61,520 nucleotides of DNA from an uncultured Syntrophaceae bacterium (GCA_964460245.1 CAYWTL010000003.1:1-61520), one strand, 5' to 3'; positions 1-35,716 are shown, counted from the stretch's first letter. The notes: generated by a model not told the origin, from the letters alone. Program-made: numbers and translations.

Positions 1-55
<55 letters not shown>

Positions 56-5250: not shown

Positions 5251-6498
5251 TTACTGGTTCATGGAGTCCAGAAATATCTGGTTTGTTTCCGTTTTTCTGA
5301 TTTTGTCGATGATGAACTCCATGGCGTCCACCGGGTTCATTTCCTGGAGAAGCCTGCGCAGGATCCAGATCCGGTTCAGATTGTTCTTGGGGATCAGCAG
5401 TTCCTCCTTTCTGGTTCCGGACCGGGTCAGGTCGAAAGCGGGGAATACACGGCGGTCGGCAATGCGGCGGTCCAGATGCAGCTCCATATTGCCGGTTCCC
5501 TTGAATTCCTCGAAAATGACTTCATCCATTCGGCTTCCGGTGTCGATCAGCGCCGTGGAAATGATCGTCAGACTGCCGCCGTTTTCGATGTTCCGGGCGG
5601 CGCCGAAAAATCGCTTCGGCTTGTGCAGGGCATTGGAATCCACGCCACCGGACAGGACCTTGCCGCTGGGGGGGACGACGGTATTGTATGCCCGGGCCAG
5701 CCGGGTGATGCTGTCCAGGAGGATAACCACGTCCTTCCGGTGCTCCACCAGGCGTTTCGCCTTTTCAATGACCATCTCGGCGACCTGGACGTGGCGCGTT
5801 GCCGGTTCGTCGAAGGTGGAGGACACGACTTCCCCCTTTACGCTCCGTTGCATGTCCGTCACTTCCTCGGGGCGTTCGTCGATCAGAAGCACCATGAGCG
5901 TGACTTCCGGGTGATTGCGCGTGATGCTGTGGGCGATGTCCTGGAGCAGAACCGTTTTACCGGCCCGGGGCGGCGACACGATCAATCCACGCTGCCCTTT
6001 TCCGATCGGGGTGAAGAGGTCCATCACCCGGGTCGACAGGTTTTCCGGATCGCTTTCGAGGTTCAGCTTCCGGTCGGGGTAGAGGGGGGTGAGGTTGTCA
6101 AAGAGAATCTTGTCCCGGGATACGTCCGGAGGCTCAAAGTTGACTGAGTCGACTTTCAGGAGGGCGAAGTACTTCTCGCCCTCCTTTGGGGGCCTGACTT
6201 CACCGGAGACCGTGTCGCCTGTTCTGAGGCTGAACCGCCGGATCTGCGAGGGTGAAATATAGATGTCATCAGGGCTGGGCAGATAGTTGTAATCCACGGC
6301 GCGAAGGAAGCCGAAACCGTCAGGCAGAATTTCCAGGACGCCGGATCCCGATATCACCCCGTTTTTTTCCGCCTGGGCCTGCAGGATGGCAAAAATCAGT
6401 TCCTGTCTTCTCATGCCGCCTGCGCCCGGAACGTTCAGGTCTTTTGTCAGGTTGGCCAGTTCGCTGATGGGCAGTCTCTTGATGTCTTCAATGTTCAT
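5251..6498 (-). CDS. rho: transcription termination factor Rho
   Basis: 415 aa with N-terminal RNA-binding domain, Walker A (PPRAGKT) and the Rho ATPase core. Confidence 0.96.
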
Positions 6499-7592: not shown

Positions 7593-8542
7593 CGCAGTGC
7601 CTCACAAAGACCGGCCATGTCCGCCGGCAGGGGAGATGTGAACGTCAGGGCATCTCCCCGAATGGGATGCGTGAAGCAAAGACGGATCGCGTGAAGCGCC
7701 TGCCGCTTCATGCCCTGCAAGGCCGCCCGCACGATCGGGTTTTCGACGGAGCGGGTTTTTTTTGCCCCGCCGTAAACGATGTCTCCCACGACCGGATGGC
7801 CCAGGGCATTCATGTGAACCCGGATCTGGTGTGTGCGTCCCGTCTCGATGTCCAGTTCGAGAAGCGTGGCCGCCTCGTATCGTTCGCAAACCCGCCAGTG
7901 CGTGACGGCCTCCTTGCCGCGCCGGCTTCGCGTGGACATCTTCTTCCGGTCCACCGGGTGCCTCCCCACGGGCAATTCGACGCTACCCCCGTCCTCCGTC
8001 GGATTTCCGTGCACCAGGGCCTGATAGGTTTTTCGGACCCCGCGGCTTTTGAATTGGTCCGTCAAGTTCTGGTGGGCTCTGTCCGATTTGGCGACGACCA
8101 GCAGGCCGGACGTGTCCTTGTCGAGGCGATGGACAATCCCGGGCCGCAGAACGCCCCCGATGCCGGAAAGATCGCGACAGTGAAAAAGGACCGCATTGAC
8201 AAGCGTGTCCCGGGGATGACCTGCCGCCGGGTGGACAACCATTCCCGCCGGCTTGTCGATCACCAGGATGGATTCATCTTCGTAAACGACGTTCAGGGGG
8301 ATTTCCTGCGGCTGCACGTCATGTACCGTCGCCTCCGGCGTTTCGATGCAAATGGTCTCGCCGGCTTTCAGCCGGCGGCTTGCCCTGGCCGGATGCATGC
8401 CGACACGGACGTGGCCGCCGTCGATGAGCCTGCGGATCTGCGCCCGGGAAAATGCGGTGCCGCGCCGCGTCAGGAAAAGATCCAGCCGCAGACCGCTTTC
8501 ATCCTCGCCGGCGACATATTTGCGTTGTTGCGGCACGTTCAT
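7580..8542 (-). CDS. rluD: RluA-family 23S rRNA pseudouridine synthase (RluD-like)
   Basis: S4-like N-terminus and catalytic HRLDKDTSGLL motif. Start placed at ATG 8542 (ATGA overlap with the selA stop); the ORF track starts it at 8560. Confidence 0.88.
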   Translation of the reverse strand: MNVPQQRKYVAGEDESGLRLDLFLTRRGTAFSRAQIRRLIDGGHVRVGMHPARASRRLKAGETICIETPEATVHDVQPQEIPLNVVYEDESILVIDKPAGMVVHPAAGHPRDTLVNAVLFHCRDLSGIGGVLRPGIVHRLDKDTSGLLVVAKSDRAHQNLTDQFKSRGVRKTYQALVHGNPTEDGGSVELPVGRHPVDRKKMSTRSRRGKEAVTHWRVCERYEAATLLELDIETGRTHQIRVHMNALGHPVVGDIVYGGAKKTRSVENPIVRAALQGMKRQALHAIRLCFTHPIRGDALTFTSPLPADMAGLCEALRCSG

Positions 8543-9954
8543 GACGACCGGAGTGTGCAAAAGCCCTGCTGGATCAATCCGAACTCCTCCCGCGTGATGG
8601 TCCTCAGGTCGAGAATCAGCTCGTCATCGGCGATCCTGGCGACAATCGGAACCGCCAGGCGCCGAAGGCGTGATTCGAGCCTGCTGGCCGTCATGGCATC
8701 GGAACGGACACTGATCAGGACCGTCGGAATTTCCTGGGTCGGCAGCGATCCGCCACCCGCCAGTGAAACTCCCTGCCGCAGGCGGAACGTAAATCCCTTC
8801 AGGTCCAACCGCCGCAGGCGGGCCTGCAGGGTCTTGGCCCTTATGGAAATGTCCCGGAGCGGAGCCGTCAGGGATTTCAGGGTCCGGATATCGGAAAACG
8901 CCTGCTCCGGGTTCAGATAGCGGATCAGGGTGGCTTCGAGGGCCGCAAGCGTCAGTTTGTCGATCCGAAGGGCGCGGTTCAGGGGATTTTTCTTGATTCG
9001 CTCCAGGATGTCCCGTTTCCCGAGGATGAGTCCCGCCTGTGGACCGCCCAGAAGCTTGTCTCCGCTGAAGGTGACGACATCGACGCCGGTCCGCAGCGCG
9101 TCGCCGACCGTCGGTTCACGGTCCAGGCCGTGCCGGTCGAGTCCTAACAGACAGCCGCTGCCCAGATCGTCCATGACCGGCACACGATATTTCTTTCCCA
9201 GCGCAACCAGTGCCGGCAAAGCGATGTCTTCTGTGAAGCCGATGATCCGGTAGTTGCTGGTGTGAACCTTGAGGATCAGGCCCGTCTTGTCCGAAAGGGC
9301 CTGCTCGTAATCTTTCAGATGCGTCCGGTTGGTTGTTCCCACTTCCCGCAGAAAGGCGCCGCTTTTCTCCATAACCTCCGGAATGCGGAACTCGCCGCCG
9401 ATTTCAATGAGCTCCCCCCGGGAAACGACGGCCTCCCTTCCGTCCGCCAGGGTGTTGATGACCAGCAGGACGGCCGCCGCGTTGTTGTTTACGACCAGGG
9501 CGTCTTCCGCGCCGGTCAGGCTGCGGAGAAGGTCCTGCACGTGATCGTAGCGGAGTCCGCGCTGGCCCTTTTCGAGGTCGAACTCCAGGTTGGAGTAGCC
9601 TTTGCCGATCTCGACGATCCTTTCCAGCGCTTCCGGACACAGCGGCGCCCGTCCGAGATTGGTGTGCAGGATAATTCCCGTGGCATTGATCACCCGGACC
9701 AGCCGGTACCGGGTCAGCGACTCCACTCTGCGAAGAACTTCATCCGCAACCCCCTCTGGCGAAGGCAGGCTCTTTTCGTTCGGTTTGCCGCCCGACGTGA
9801 GCAGGCGGTTTCGATGATTGTCCACGACCGTCCGGCATTCCGATTTCAGAATGTCCTTTGGAATTCCGAACGGGACATCCCGCTTCTCCAGGATTGCCAG
9901 TACTTCATCGATCTTGGGGAGATGTTTCAGCAGGTTCTTTGTGTCGTCGTCCAT
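8539..9954 (-). CDS. selA: L-seryl-tRNA(Sec) selenium transferase
   Basis: 471 aa, SelA-like over its full length (N-terminal ..LP.IDEVL.., PLP-fold core with FSGDKLLGGPQAG containing the PLP lysine). Confidence 0.9.
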   Translation of the reverse strand: MDDDTKNLLKHLPKIDEVLAILEKRDVPFGIPKDILKSECRTVVDNHRNRLLTSGGKPNEKSLPSPEGVADEVLRRVESLTRYRLVRVINATGIILHTNLGRAPLCPEALERIVEIGKGYSNLEFDLEKGQRGLRYDHVQDLLRSLTGAEDALVVNNNAAAVLLVINTLADGREAVVSRGELIEIGGEFRIPEVMEKSGAFLREVGTTNRTHLKDYEQALSDKTGLILKVHTSNYRIIGFTEDIALPALVALGKKYRVPVMDDLGSGCLLGLDRHGLDREPTVGDALRTGVDVVTFSGDKLLGGPQAGLILGKRDILERIKKNPLNRALRIDKLTLAALEATLIRYLNPEQAFSDIRTLKSLTAPLRDISIRAKTLQARLRRLDLKGFTFRLRQGVSLAGGGSLPTQEIPTVLISVRSDAMTASRLESRLRRLAVPIVARIADDELILDLRTITREEFGLIQQGFCTLRSS

Positions 9955-20249: not shown

Positions 20250-20516
20250 CTATTTTTTTGCCCGGGCTGCTTTCTTGACTGCCGTTTTCTTTACGGCTGC
20301 CTTTGCCGGTGCTGCTTTTTTCGCGGCAGGCTTTTTTGCCGCGGCTGCTTTTGCCGCCGGTTTGGCCTTCGCTTTTGCCGGAGCTGCTTTCTTTGCGGCT
20401 GCCTTTGCCGGCACTGCTTTTTTCACGGCAGGCTTTTTTGCCGCGGCTGCTTTTGCCGCCGGTTTGGCCTTCGCTTTTTTCGGGACCGCTTTTACAGCTT
20501 TCTTTGCAATTGCCAT
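20250..20516 (-). CDS. histone H1-like Lys/Ala-rich DNA-binding protein (no signal peptide)
   Basis: MAIAKKAVKAVPKKAKAKPAAKAAAAKKPA.. about 88 aa. Start at ATG 20516 with GGAGG about 10 nt upstream; the ORF track starts at 20567. Confidence 0.75.
   Translation of the reverse strand: MAIAKKAVKAVPKKAKAKPAAKAAAAKKPAVKKAVPAKAAAKKAAPAKAKAKPAAKAAAAKKPAAKKAAPAKAAVKKTAVKKAARAKK
20300..20478. repeat. in-frame tandem duplication inside the H1-like gene (102-bp period)
   Basis: The 52-nt string ggcaggcttttttgccgcggctgcttttgccgccggtttggccttcgctttt occurs identically at 20325-20376 and 20427-20478. The flanks are similar back to 20300 and 20402. Confidence 0.9.
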
Positions 20517-20580
20517 TTGTGACGCCTCCTTTGTTGAATTTGTGCTTGTTTCAAACGGCCGAATCACCCTTCCTTCTTCT

Positions 20581-22173: not shown

Positions 22174-22252
22174 GGGCTCCTCCGGGTGAAATGGATAAAA
22201 GAAGGTTGCGCGGTTCTCGCTCTTTTTTCGGTGACTCGGGGATCGCTTTGCT

Positions 22253-22384
22253 CAGGGTGACAAAGAAGATCGAGTCTTTCCGTAGGACGAGCCTGAGCAA
22301 GGGTTCGTCCGGGTCCGCTTTCGACAGTGCTGCCGCATAATCCTTCAGGTTGGCAATGTTGCTCCGGTTGATCCGGAGAATCAC
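22253..22384 (-). pseudogene. possible remnant of the C-terminal half of a PDZ domain (HtrA/Ctp-like)
   Basis: The frame reads ..QDVILRINRSNIANLKDYAAALSKADPDEPLLRLVLRKDSIFFVTL. There is no ATG, GTG or TTG between the upstream stop (22484-22486) and GTG 22384. The tail runs 83 nt into the nitroreductase gene. Confidence 0.25.
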
Positions 22385-22425
22385 ATCCTGCGGCGGTGAC
22401 GCATATTCGCGGCCATCCTTTCCCC

Positions 22426-22893
22426 TCAGCCTCCCGCTGTCTGCGTAAACGCCGTATTGCCGTAGAGGTACTCGACCTTCTCCTTATGACGCATCTCCTG
22501 CCGGGCCATGCCGATAAGCATATCCTTGACTTCGCCGTCCGGATGCATCTTGGCGAGGTCCTCGTAGAATTTAGCGGCGTTGAGTTCCTTGTTGGCGGCA
22601 ATCAGGTACACCTCGCGGGTTCGGACATCCTTGCCGATTTCTGGTTTTTTCTCCTGCTCGGCGATCTTGTAATCAACGGGAGCGTCCATGGCAAGGGATG
22701 CCCCGCGGAAACCGCCGTCCCGGTACTTCACCAGATAGGCCTTGTGCTGTTTTTCTTCCTGCGCCAGGAATTTCAAAGTATCCTTGGCCTCCTTGTCCTC
22801 CACGAGGCTGCAGAGCTCCATGTAAGATTCGTAGGCCTCCTCTTCATTCTTGATGGCCAGTGCAATCAAAGATTCAAGGGTCATGTTTTTCAT
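22426..22893 (-). CDS. rubrerythrin/ferritin-like diiron protein (no rubredoxin domain)
   Basis: 155 aa with paired E...ExxH motifs (EEEAY..EEKQH; ..E..QEMRH). Confidence 0.8.
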   Translation of the reverse strand: MKNMTLESLIALAIKNEEEAYESYMELCSLVEDKEAKDTLKFLAQEEKQHKAYLVKYRDGGFRGASLAMDAPVDYKIAEQEKKPEIGKDVRTREVYLIAANKELNAAKFYEDLAKMHPDGEVKDMLIGMARQEMRHKEKVEYLYGNTAFTQTAGG

Positions 22894-22955
22894 CGATCGC
22901 GCCTCCTAAAAGATTTACCACACACAAGCCCATTCCCGATGGGCCGTCAGACACC

Positions 22956-23162
22956 TCAGGTGCCGCCGTAGCCGATGGTGACACAATCTCCATCCACGAT
23001 CACCGGAACCTGCCGTTTGCCGCCGGAACGTTTCAGCATTTCCTCCAGCTTCGCAGGATTCGATTTGACATCCACGTAGATGGCCCTGTCGCTATAGGCC
23101 GACCTGGCTTGATCCGTGTGGGGTCAGCCGGCCTTTCCGTAAATGATCACTGTGTCCGTCAT
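22956..23162 (-). CDS. glutaredoxin/NrdH-like thioredoxin-fold selenoprotein; in-frame TGA at 23124-23126 read as Sec
   Basis: Hand translation gives MTDTVIIYGKAG-U-PHTDQARSAYSDRAIYVDVKSNPAKLEEMLKRSGGKRQVPVIVDGDCVTIGYGGT-stop. TGA replaces the first Cys of the CxxC/T motif. A Grx-like VP...GG end is present. GGAGGG lies 7 nt before ATG 23162, directly after the upstream stop. Confidence 0.7.
23072..23121 (-). promoter_or_regulatory. candidate bacterial SECIS hairpin downstream of the UGA
   Basis: Hand fold: CCAC/GUGG, GGAU/AUCU, GCC/GGC, then an apical GUCG-GCCUAUAG-CGAC. The apical stem begins about 20 nt after the UGA and the loop starts with G. Confidence 0.35.
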
Positions 23163-23175
23163 GGGAAGTCCCTCC

Positions 23176-23661
23176 TCAATAATCCGTCAGGTGCGAAAGC
23201 CCTCGCTCTCCAACCAGAATGATCCTTGTATGTGTCAGCCGACTGGCGATCACCTTTGCGGTCGCCTGCATCACCTTGTATCCCAGTTCGCAGTCGTCGT
23301 TCATCAGCGCTCTCAGCTTGGCGGCATCCAGGGCGATTAACTTCGTCCGGTCGATGCAGAGGGCCCCCAGGGTGTACACATAGGGCTCAACGACAGCCGA
23401 CCAGCCCATGGATTCCCCCTTGGTGATCATGTCTACAGTAATCTGCATGGGCGGCTGCTGCGGCCCCATGTAATTTTCCATGACCATGACCACTTTGCCC
23501 TCCTTACACATGAAGAGGCTACGGGCAGGGTCTCCCTTTTTGTACATCTGGGCTCCCGCTTCGTAGGTTTCTTCCACCGCGATCGTGGCCAGCTTCTTCA
23601 ATTGTGCGTCCGTGAATCCCTTGAAAAAAACGTATTCCTTGAGAGAGCCTGCTGAAACCAT
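23176..23661 (-). CDS. stand-alone cyclic-nucleotide-binding (cNMP/CAP effector) domain protein
   Basis: 161 aa with FF.GF....L..L....E..Y..G..+...GD and a beta-roll. No HTH or other output domain. Confidence 0.75.
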   Translation of the reverse strand: MVSAGSLKEYVFFKGFTDAQLKKLATIAVEETYEAGAQMYKKGDPARSLFMCKEGKVVMVMENYMGPQQPPMQITVDMITKGESMGWSAVVEPYVYTLGALCIDRTKLIALDAAKLRALMNDDCELGYKVMQATAKVIASRLTHTRIILVGERGLSHLTDY

Positions 23662-25237: not shown

Positions 25238-25819
25238 TCATTTTCCGAACGCGCGACGGGCCGTCTCTTCCGCCTGGCTTACTCCCCGGATGCCGTAAAA
25301 CACGGCCTTTCTGATGCGGCTCACATCCTTCGCCGCGCCAGACGCCGAGGCCGTGAAAACCAGATCTCCCGTCCCGTGGCGACGCTCGATCCGCCTGATC
25401 GAGCCGATATCCTCTTCTCCATAGGCATCGACATACGTTCTGTCGCCTGCGGTAATGATCAGGCAGCGCCGGTCCGTAATGGCATAGACCGTCCGGTTCG
25501 CCCTTCGGTACGCCAGGCCGGGGAGGGCCATCAGGACGAGCCCCATCAGGATGAAAACTAACCCGAACAGTGGCCAGAAGCCAAGGGGGTTCTCTCCGGA
25601 GAAATCGGGCATGCGGAAGCCGAGGGCGGACGCTATCCAGTAAATGGCAAATGCGATCCAGGGAACGCCCAGGATGAAGATGGGCAGCGTCTGCAGGGCA
25701 AAACGGCGGGGATCGGGTCTTCCGGACCAGAGGAGGCGCTCTTCCGGTTGGAGGACCGATTGGGCGATGCGCCGGGTTTTCCCGCTGCTGTCTTCCGGCA
25801 TGGCGGATCCTGTTATCAT
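25238..25819 (-). CDS. membrane protein with C-terminal bacterial PH-like domain
   Basis: 193 aa with two TM helices, then ..YAITDRRCLI...GDLVF.. ATG 25819 forms an ATGA overlap with the tlpA-like stop. Confidence 0.6.
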   Translation of the reverse strand: MITGSAMPEDSSGKTRRIAQSVLQPEERLLWSGRPDPRRFALQTLPIFILGVPWIAFAIYWIASALGFRMPDFSGENPLGFWPLFGLVFILMGLVLMALPGLAYRRANRTVYAITDRRCLIITAGDRTYVDAYGEEDIGSIRRIERRHGTGDLVFTASASGAAKDVSRIRKAVFYGIRGVSQAEETARRAFGK

Positions 25820-26340
25820 TGCGGAGAGCCGGAAAAAAGGCCGCTCAGCAGATCGTCGATGGCCTGATACTGGCGTGAGAGGATGCGGCCTTCCCGGTCG
25901 ATGAGGATCATGGAGGGCACACCCACGATCCGGTAAGCTTCGGCAACGCGGCCGGTGTCATCCAGGAGCACCTTGTAGGGAAGCTGGTATTTCTCCGCGA
26001 ATCGGGAGACCTTGTCGCCGGATTCCTGAATATTGACATTGGCGACAACCAGTCCACGCCCGGCATAGGCCTCGTGGATTTTCCTGTAACGGGGAAGTTC
26101 CGAACGGCAGGTTGCGCACCAGGTGGTGGAGAAAATGAGCAGAACCGGTTTTCCCCGCTGCTCGCTTAGGAGAAACTTCCCGCCGCTGAGGTCCTTCAGC
26201 ATGAAGTCCTGGGCCTTTCCTTCGGCCGTCTTCGTTGTTACCGGTGCTTGCGGCGCCTCCGTGCACGACAGCATTGCCAGGATCATCAGCGCAGCACAGC
26301 CGAGCCGAACTTCATGCGCCCTTTTTTTTCTTCTTGTCAT
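25816..26340 (-). CDS. TlpA/ResA-like periplasmic thiol:disulfide oxidoreductase
   Basis: 174 aa from ATG 26340, with a signal/lipobox-like N-terminus (MLSC) and WCATC active site. The upstream 146 aa of the listed ORF is an open shadow frame across ccdA. Confidence 0.85.
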   Translation of the reverse strand: MTRRKKRAHEVRLGCAALMILAMLSCTEAPQAPVTTKTAEGKAQDFMLKDLSGGKFLLSEQRGKPVLLIFSTTWCATCRSELPRYRKIHEAYAGRGLVVANVNIQESGDKVSRFAEKYQLPYKVLLDDTGRVAEAYRIVGVPSMILIDREGRILSRQYQAIDDLLSGLFSGSPQ

Positions 26341-26345
26341 GATTT

Positions 26346-27062
26346 TTATCCCCACATGATACCGGCTTGAATCAGAAAATACTCCCCCGCTCCGATCATG
26401 ATCCAGCCGAAAATGCGGCTGACCCGCGTCATCCACATGCCCGACCGGGGCATGCTGGCCAGCATTCCGGCGGACGTGCCGAGAATGATCAGAAGGGTTC
26501 CCATCCCGAAGGCAAAAACGAACAGCAGGGTCGCGGCGAAAAACAGGTTCTGCTGGGTGGCGACGTAGCCGAGGAGAACGGCAAGAACCGGCGCCGTGCA
26601 GGGACCCATGACGAGGCCCGATGCCATGCCGACCAGAAAACCGGCGATGTTCCCGCCCTTGTTTTCCTGAGGCTGCAGCCGCGCGATGAACTGCGGGGTT
26701 CGAACGGGCAGGGTGAAGACGTCCAGCATGGCCAAGCCCATGAGAATGCAGACGTTGGCCATGATCAGATAAGTCCAAGGATTGGACTGGAGCTGGCCGA
26801 AGAGCTTGCCCGACAAAGCGGCGATCGCGCCGAGGGCCGTGTAGGTGACGGCCATGCCGAGGACGTAGATGATGGAAAGTCTGAAACCTCTGAGTTTCGA
26901 GCCGCCGCCGTGGGCGCCGATAAAGGCGATGGTGATGGGCGCAACGGGGTAGACACAGGGGGTAAAGCTGACCAGGACGCCGCCGAGATAAACAGCCGCA
27001 TAGGCCAGCAGCGATGAGCCCTGGAGGTAACCGGAGAGTCCCTGGATAAATTGATCGATCAC
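26346..27062 (-). CDS. ccdA: cytochrome c biogenesis / thiol-reductant transfer protein CcdA (DsbD transmembrane family)
   Basis: 238 aa, six TM helices, conserved Cys in TPCVYP and GPCTAP. Confidence 0.88.
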   Translation of the reverse strand: MIDQFIQGLSGYLQGSSLLAYAAVYLGGVLVSFTPCVYPVAPITIAFIGAHGGGSKLRGFRLSIIYVLGMAVTYTALGAIAALSGKLFGQLQSNPWTYLIMANVCILMGLAMLDVFTLPVRTPQFIARLQPQENKGGNIAGFLVGMASGLVMGPCTAPVLAVLLGYVATQQNLFFAATLLFVFAFGMGTLLIILGTSAGMLASMPRSGMWMTRVSRIFGWIMIGAGEYFLIQAGIMWG

Positions 27063-35629: not shown

Positions 35630-35716
35630 TGGTGCCGAAGCCGGGATTTGAACCCGGACAGGCGTACACCCACTAGACCCTGAACCTAGCGCGTCTACCA
35701 ATTCCGCCACTTCGGC
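35630..35716 (-). tRNA. tRNA-Leu (anticodon CAG), long variable arm, encoded CCA
   Basis: Reverse complement reads GCCGAAGTGGCGGAATTGGTAGACGCG CTAGG-TTCAGGG-TCTAG TGGGTGTACGCCTGTC CGGGTTCAAATCCCGG CTTCGGCACCA. Confidence 0.93.

Follow-up and report, generated by a model that had tools for sequence, protein, structure and literature searches.

Selenoproteins related to the glutaredoxin (Grx) family are already on record. Table 1 of a 2026 review lists a 'Distant Grx-like protein 1' with the motif UxxT and two selenocysteine (Sec, U) residues, and credits it to the GOS study of Zhang & Gladyshev 2008 (PMC13188914). In a text search of the 2008 paper, Table 2 has 'Grx-like' selenoproteins, without the string 'distant Grx-like 1'; the tie of the family to the study therefore rests on the citation in the review. 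Clostridial Sec-Grx proteins, with the motif UxxC, likewise carry Sec at the nucleophilic position (PMC13188914).

In glutaredoxins the GG motif lines the active-site groove. For the yeast monothiol protein Grx5, Tamarit et al. reportedly described in J Biol Chem in 2003 the pair Cys60 and Cys117, with a semi-conserved Cys right after the GG. Mammalian thioredoxin reductase (TrxR) has a C-terminal Gly-Cys-Sec-Gly tail through which electrons pass into and out of a buried redox centre. The UXX-star families are said to have been named by Haft & Tolstoy in mSystems in 2025.

We have analysed a stretch of 61,520 nucleotides from an uncultured Syntrophaceae bacterium, referred to here as the window. 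A gene on its minus strand, at 22947-23162, very probably encodes a double-Sec protein of Grx fold belonging to UXX-star family 1. A sequence-only reading of this DNA had proposed a hidden selenoprotein here, and the gene very probably does encode a genuine one. It is not a new one, since it falls within the NCBIfam family NF041114 and matches the published catalogue entry with UxxT and two Sec (PMC13188914). The window gene belongs, as an ordinary member, to a curated NCBIfam equivalog the two-Sec architecture of which was already known.

With UXX-star family 1, or Distant Grx-like protein 1, the window protein shares a length of ~70 aa, the glutaredoxin fold, the N-terminal UxxT, two Sec, one of them three residues before the stop (U-x-x-stop), and a score well above the HMM cutoff. 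There is no substantive difference; specific to the window are a non-conserved Cys60 and a weakened first SECIS hairpin. The U-P-H-T of the window protein has His where most members carry Tyr or Phe. The fold, the position of the active site after β1, the VPV cis-Pro and the GG are held in common with classical Grx and NrdH (E. coli Grx3, 1FOV and 3GRX; NrdH, 1H75), but the dithiol CxxC of those proteins is replaced by UxxT, with Thr at the resolving position. Moreover, the chain ends 4 residues past the GG, without the Grx C-terminal helix and the GSH-binding 'GGxdD' segment. The clostridial Sec-Grx differs in having UxxC where the window protein has UxxT.

Grx5 provides a working analogy, in that an active-site nucleophile is accompanied by a second redox residue past the GG that is able to bond with it intramolecularly. 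However, Grx5 carries the motif CGFS, is a binder of Fe-S clusters, retains the C-terminal helices and relies on Cys, whereas the window protein has Sec at both places and ends after the second of them; we do not claim membership. TrxR is alike in having a Sec in the penultimate region of a flexible, Gly-flanked tail, with the SECIS necessarily beyond the stop codon. It differs as a 55-kDa flavoenzyme with a eukaryotic 3'-UTR SECIS, where the window protein has 71 residues and a bacterial-type hairpin 17 nt after the UGA.

Gene structure

The gene model, with the two predicted Sec codons, is as follows.

23170-23177, minus strand: Shine-Dalgarno sequence GAGGAGGG, 7 nt 5' of the ATG (from the sequence)
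22947-23162, minus strand: corrected coding sequence, MTDTVIIYGKAG-U-PHTDQARSAYSDRAIYVDVKSNPAKLEEMLKRSGGKRQVPVIVDGDCVTIGYGGT-U-GV-stop, 71 codons plus stop (sequence, NF041114, PF00462 and homologues)
23124-23126, minus strand: Sec codon 1 (codon 13), replacing the nucleophilic Cys in the motif U-P-H-T (codons 13-16)
22956-22958, minus strand: Sec codon 2, codon 69, earlier taken as the stop (TGA conserved in homologues)
22947-22949, minus strand: true stop TGA, three codons past Sec codon 2 (sequence; stop codon in homologues)

The minus-strand reading on which the proposal was built is reproduced exactly: ATG at 23162-23160, MTDTVIIYGKAG, TGA at 23126-23124, PHTDQARSAYSDRAIYVDVKSNPAKLEEMLKRSGGKRQVPVIVDGDCVTIGYGGT and TGA at 22958-22956. 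From the ATG at 23162 this amounts to 12 codons, the first TGA, 55 codons and the second TGA. The in-frame TGA at 23126-23124 is codon 13, so Sec would occupy the nucleophilic-Cys position of a UxxT motif, U-P-H-T, as had been suggested, and the cis-Pro (VPV) and GG features are both found in the translated protein. The end of the gene at 22956, by contrast, was misplaced. The frame runs on as TGA-GGT-GTC-TGA, putting the true stop at 22949-22947, and the corrected gene is 216 nt in length with the C-terminus GGT-U-G-V-stop (where GGT is Gly-Gly-Thr). Thus the first Sec and the Grx/NrdH-like fold of the original call are retained, while the second TGA becomes a Sec codon instead of a stop.

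The Shine-Dalgarno sequence GAGGAGGG (23177-23170) comes directly after the TGA stop (23178-23176) of the upstream cNMP-binding gene, in agreement with the earlier description. A cNMP-Grx fusion read across that TGA is ruled out, as the two genes lie in different frames. The gene is indeed hidden from a stop-to-stop ORF track, which lists only a 39-aa GTG fragment (22956-23075, minus strand) and the plus-strand ORF 22860-23222.

At codon 60 (22983-22985, minus strand; DGD-C-VTIGY) a Cys is found in the window protein, where its relatives carry Lys, Asn or Arg. This would be a third potential redox residue, unique to the window protein among the sequences examined.

Family membership and fold

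With Cys standing in for both Sec residues, the 71-residue protein scores 110.1 bits against NF041114, 'UXX-star selenoprotein family 1', over model positions 1-70 of 70; the curated cutoff is 72 bits. Placing X at both Sec positions lowers the score to 96.8 bits, which is above the cutoff. A 68-residue version with Cys for the first TGA gives 101.3 bits and covers only model positions 1-67 of 70. Adding U/C-G-V fills positions 68-70 and takes the score from 101.3 to 110.1 bits. The 68-residue reading, with its Cys stand-in, also matches Pfam PF00462 (Glutaredoxin) with 31.8 bits over residues 5-61. Profile comparison with the UGA read as Sec, which the sequence-only reading had proposed as a check, therefore returns the Grx fold through PF00462 and the UXX-star family through NF041114. 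The two halves of the gene score jointly as a single glutaredoxin domain and in NF041114, and the TGA is kept in ~60 homologues; the arrangement is thus not due to chance.

Scores against related families lie far below their curated cutoffs: 32.0 against 90 bits for Grx3 (TIGR02181), 16.5 against 131 for NrdH (TIGR02194, PRK10329) and 30.5 against 88.55 bits for YruB (TIGR02196). One homologue in the databases (P0031) already bears the NCBI name 'UXX-star selenoprotein family 1'.

For the fold we have used the AlphaFold model of a homologue (P0001) that is 76% identical to the window protein and has Trp at both Sec sites. This has a pLDDT of 85.4 and a beta-alpha-beta-alpha-beta-beta core, and its top PDB matches in Foldseek are all Grx or NrdH. 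In the model no helix follows β4, and the C-terminal tail is of low confidence (pLDDT 43-70).

Conservation of the two UGA codons

In a protein search 38 relatives were retrieved. Many of them are translated with TGA as Trp, reading 'G-W-PYT ... GG(T/S)-W-GV'; a second set, with Cys at position 13, ends in 'GYGGT', and a third consists of fragments of 39-42 residues that start after position 13. These three patterns (Trp, early end and fragment) are the expected output of a mis-annotated gene with two UGA codons. Entries with Trp at both Sec positions (P0001, P0002, P0006-P0020, P0023 and P0025) come mostly from short ENA metagenome contigs. Evidently the gene caller chose a code with TGA as Trp for these entries, so that they are mis-annotated systematically.

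When one genome per species was scanned, 245 stretches matched; from these, 80 loci in 80 other genomes were taken, with 83 gene copies. The loci are mostly from Syntrophales or Syntrophaceae MAGs, with some from Nitrospirae and Thermodesulfovibrionales. Of the copies, 68 are of the window type; a sister subfamily is set apart by an insertion of 13 residues.

All 83/83 copies have TGA as their C-terminal codon; L052 has TGG at the aligned place, with the first TGA three codons later. L052 (~5-214) reads ...GGS-W-GV-TGA, which may reflect a true replacement of Sec by Trp or an assembly error of one base. In window-type copies the codon after Sec 2 encodes Gly by GGC (27), GGG (25), GGA (7) or GGT (5), and the next encodes Val by GTG (27), GTA (19), GTC (10) or GTT (7). 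Variation in these two codons across the 68 copies is thus almost wholly at the third position. The third codon after Sec 2 is a stop in 68/68, being TAA in 28, TGA in 26 and TAG in 14. An invariant TGA followed by Gly-Val codons that vary at the wobble position and then by mixed stops is what one would expect of translation that runs past the second TGA to a stop three codons on, and not of a stop at that TGA.

At codon 13, ~60 window-type copies have TGA and 9 have TGT or TGC, within a protein that is strongly conserved on both sides. This alternation of TGA with Cys makes it a classic Sec/Cys pair. It also bears out the expectation that homologues would have Sec or Cys at the aligned first UGA and that the two halves would occur together. 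The usual argument from such a pair is missing for Sec 2, as there is no Cys orthologue at the C-terminal position among the 83 copies.

Two loci carry tandem duplicates of the UXX-star gene ~425 bp apart, at ~5588-5800 and 6013-6225 in L016 and at ~5640-5850 and 6060-6270 in L080. Both TGA codons are present in each of these copies, as is a separate hairpin in the 3' UTR. No second copy of the family turned up when the window was scanned for one, nor did other long ORF pairs linked through a single TGA yield a further convincing selenoprotein candidate.

Hairpins downstream of the UGA codons

The criteria for a bacterial SECIS (bSECIS) quoted in the review are an apical loop of 3-9 nt, an upper stem of 4-16 bp, a G in the first two loop positions, a spacing of 16-37 nt between UGA and loop, and a minimum free energy (MFE) of -7.5 kcal/mol or below (PMC13188914). 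The elements considered in the window are these.

22927-22945, minus strand: SECIS-2, GGCCCAU-CGGGA-AUGGGCU, 7-bp stem (fold and family covariation)
23096-23110, minus strand: SECIS-1 candidate A, AAGCC-AGGUC-GGCCU (family covariation and codon bias; weak in the window)
23083-23108, minus strand: SECIS-1 candidate B, GCC-AG-GUCG[GCCUAUAG]CGAC-AG-GGC, overlapping A (fold of the window)

SECIS-2 lies in the 3' UTR. In the window its 5-nt loop CGGGA starts 17 nt past Sec codon 2, the hairpin has ΔG = -9.9 kcal/mol, and it falls within all of the quoted bSECIS limits. Every homologue has a hairpin of 6-9 bp at the same offset from its C-terminal UGA. In an alignment of 53 sequences compensatory changes are found in 7/7 pairs, and 87% of the cells are paired; with the partner column slid, only 22-40% are. 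For covariation the alignment scores 0.628 and shuffled alignments 0.265, 0/500 of which reach 0.628, with 0.03-0.16 for the slid controls. One loop G is invariant, and no run of U follows the hairpin. RNAalifold independently predicts the same helix.

The hairpin after the first UGA, SECIS-1, lies inside the coding sequence. The family consensus for candidate A is (A)GGCC-AGGUC-GGCC(U), with a 5-bp stem and a loop 18 nt after the UGA, and its upper helix is 96% paired across the family. Pair 21/27 is C-G in 46 sequences and U-A in 9 and is never unpaired; its columns are synonymous third positions, with Ala GCC changing to GCU and Ser UCG to UCA. Pair 18/30 occurs as five pair types. The Arg codon that supplies the GG of the loop is NGG in 57/58 Sec forms and AGG in 42, whereas a second conserved Arg of these genes, taken as a control, has NGG in 38/68 and AGG in 11 (Fisher p = 4e-9 for NGG and 2e-10 for AGG). 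In the family 62% of members lie at or below -7.5 kcal/mol. In the window, candidate A is reduced to 3 bp, an A.C mismatch and 1 bp, and its ΔG of -3.5 to -4.3 kcal/mol is above that criterion; in strength it ranks 49/55, and the closest relative (L002) is last. Thus the 'imperfect hairpin' of the sequence-only reading is real across the family, as judged by covariation and codon bias, but weak in the window gene itself.

Candidate B folds to -12.1 kcal/mol in the window, with an 8-nt loop that starts with G and a spacing of 24 nt, which agrees with the numeric bSECIS criteria. The window and its relatives L001 and L002 rank 5, 4 and 8 of 55 in its strength. We have rejected this long-range MFE structure as the SECIS of the family, as its covariation is below that of shuffled controls; a SECIS specific to the clade is a possibility. 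Searches of Rfam, at gathering thresholds for the whole window and permissively for 22850-23200, found no SECIS or other relevant RNA family. After either UGA there stands, at a spacing like that of a bSECIS, a hairpin whose apical loop has G-G/U at its start.

Sec machinery and gene neighbourhood

The surrounding genes that bear on the argument are the following.

8539-9954, minus strand: selA, L-seryl-tRNA(Sec) selenium transferase (TIGR00474, 594.6 bits, cutoff 267.9; PF03841)
23176-23661, minus strand: stand-alone cNMP-binding-domain protein, 161 aa, upstream neighbour (PF00027)
22426-22893, minus strand: rubrerythrin/ferritin-like diiron protein, 155 aa, downstream neighbour (PF02915)

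The presence of selA in the same window had been pointed out, and it is found at 8539-9954 (minus strand), with 594.6 bits for TIGR00474, 13.2 kb from the selenoprotein gene. It speaks for Sec-tRNA being made by the organism. Within the 61.5-kb window none of selB, selC and selD was found. The tRNA scans of the window gave only tRNA-Leu(CAG) at 35630-35716 (minus strand) and a truncated tRNA at 1-55 (minus strand), neither of which is tRNA-Sec. The truncated tRNA, at the window edge, scores 38.6 bits in Rfam and is cut at its 3' end.

Neighbouring genes across the 80 loci were grouped by unbiased clustering. A cNMP gene is immediately upstream in 28/80 loci and a rubrerythrin-like gene immediately downstream in 16/80, in each case always on the same strand; a divergent NlpC/P60 gene is found at 27 window-type loci. 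A subclade of Syntrophales conserves the same-strand cassette of three genes, for the cNMP-binding protein, the UXX-star selenoprotein and the rubrerythrin-like diiron protein, and in that clade the selenoprotein is probably co-expressed with the two flanking genes. The rubrerythrin-like neighbour has two ExxH motifs and is without a rubredoxin domain.

A contig of a Syntrophales MAG (L002, JAXDBM010000041) shows synteny with the window at ~90% DNA identity, the value for L001 being 84%. The cNMP protein is 97-98% identical to the L001 and L002 copies, compared with 79-86% for the selenoprotein. The blastn alignment with L001 is split at 22179-22425, where ~245 bp between the nitroreductase and rubrerythrin-like genes are unaligned, whereas the same stretch is essentially continuous in the alignment to L002. 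This may be a small indel in an intergenic or overlapping-ORF region.

The sister subfamily (L031, L044, L047, L048, L058, L060, L063, L067, L068, L072, L073, L077, L078 and L079) has the motif YGTxT-[C/U]-PFC, thus CxxC or UxxC, and its 13-residue insertion lies ahead of the tail (...GFAGDVSLRGGVPIFGGT-U-xV). Its gene is near position 6000 in most of these loci. It scores 90.6 bits against NF041114, above the cutoff but over residues 5-67 only. In 14/14 loci its same-strand neighbour is a gene for the arsenite efflux transporter ACR3 (TIGR00832, 370 bits), and ACR3 is near none of the 66 window-type loci.

Elsewhere in the window, 25816-26778 (minus strand) encodes a ResA/TlpA-like thiol-disulfide oxidoreductase with a weak match to the 'WAxxUGC' selenoprotein family (58 bits, cutoff 300). 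We have rejected it as a selenoprotein, since its motif has Cys (...TTWCATC...) and it is therefore the Cys form. At 20250-20567 (minus strand) there is a 105-residue ORF made almost entirely of Ala/Lys/Pro repeats (AKKAVKAVPKKAKAKPAAKAAAAKK...), the product of which has the look of a basic protein, either similar to histone H1 or DNA-binding.

Discussion

By analogy with bacterial Sec decoding, SelB-GTP-Sec-tRNA(Sec) would bind each hairpin as the ribosome reaches the UGA, and both UGA codons would be recoded, the hairpin for the second site acting from just beyond the stop codon. That the first UGA alone is recoded, so that the protein would end at the TGA 22958-22956 and the downstream hairpin would be a terminator or a regulatory element of the next gene, strikes us as very unlikely. 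TGA is a normal stop in this genome, as for the upstream cNMP gene, and the shorter protein would be in keeping with the lack of a Cys orthologue at the C-terminal position. Yet the codon is TGA throughout, never TAA or TAG, when the stop three codons further on uses all three, and the Gly-Val codons vary at the wobble position only, implying selection on the translated peptide. The hairpin has its invariant loop G, a fixed, bSECIS-like spacing from the TGA and no following U-run, NF041114 extends over the three extra residues with the gain from 101.3 to 110.1 bits, and the published catalogue gives two Sec (PMC13188914). It is hardly credible that there is no selenoprotein here at all, the sequence being instead a nonsense pseudogene, a 12-codon leader followed by a 39-codon GTG ORF, or a gene in an alternative code with UGA as Trp or Gly. 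The many homologue entries translated with TGA as Trp ('GW-PYT ... GGTWGV') and the 39-aa fragment shown by the ORF finder would be accommodated by such readings. However, in dozens of species TGA stands at the same two codons, flanked by sequence under purifying selection, the alternative to it at position 13 is Cys and not Trp, and TGA is an ordinary stop for the neighbours and, in 26/68 copies, for the UXX-star gene itself. Furthermore, selA is present and covarying RNA hairpins lie downstream of both UGA codons.

Within the double-Sec protein, Sec13 would be the nucleophile, and Thr sits where a classical Grx keeps its resolving Cys. There is no resolving residue of a CxxC, there is no C-terminal Grx helix, and the chain ends just past the GG, which together point to Sec69 as the partner of Sec13. 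On this model Sec69, carried on a flexible tail, would act as the resolving residue, forming an intramolecular Sec13-Sec69 diselenide, or a selenenylsulfide in the Cys13 orthologues, and the protein would work as a low-potential redox shuttle. We advance resolution of Sec13 by Sec69 through a diselenide, making such a shuttle, as a tentative proposal that we regard as having nearly an even chance of being right. The two Sec residues of the same gene might instead form a pair of ligands for a metal or metalloid, such as As(III), Hg or another soft metal, so that the protein would serve as a chaperone or buffer and not as an oxidoreductase. Metal or metalloid binding is suggested in the review (PMC13188914), and the sister subfamily stands beside the arsenite efflux gene in all 14 of its loci; that gene is, however, near 0/66 window-type loci, where the cNMP-binding and rubrerythrin-like diiron neighbours point to redox or oxidative stress, and a thiol-disulfide oxidoreductase is what the fold and the placing of Sec13 correspond to. 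We therefore consider a ligand pair unlikely, if by no means far-fetched.

Returning to the redox shuttle, one might extend it to the cassette as a whole, as a module for peroxide or oxygen detoxification in which the Sec13-Sec69 protein replaces rubredoxin as the direct electron donor to the diiron peroxidase. This is speculative, and we think it improbable. On the same speculative reading SECIS-2, which lies between the stop at 22947 and the ATG at 22893, could also couple translation of the rubrerythrin-like gene to the availability of selenium.

What was known before of the existence and architecture of the family is unchanged by the window gene. Its value is in annotation: standard ORF callers miss the gene, give a 39-residue fragment or apply the wrong genetic code, and a pipeline that recognises the first UGA may still stop three residues early and so lose the second Sec. 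It also illustrates, in little space, the use of two SECIS elements by a single 216-nt gene, the first within the coding sequence and the second in the 3' UTR. The neighbourhoods may guide functional work on the family, by way of the cNMP/rubrerythrin-like cassette for the window type and of ACR3 for the subfamily with the insertion.
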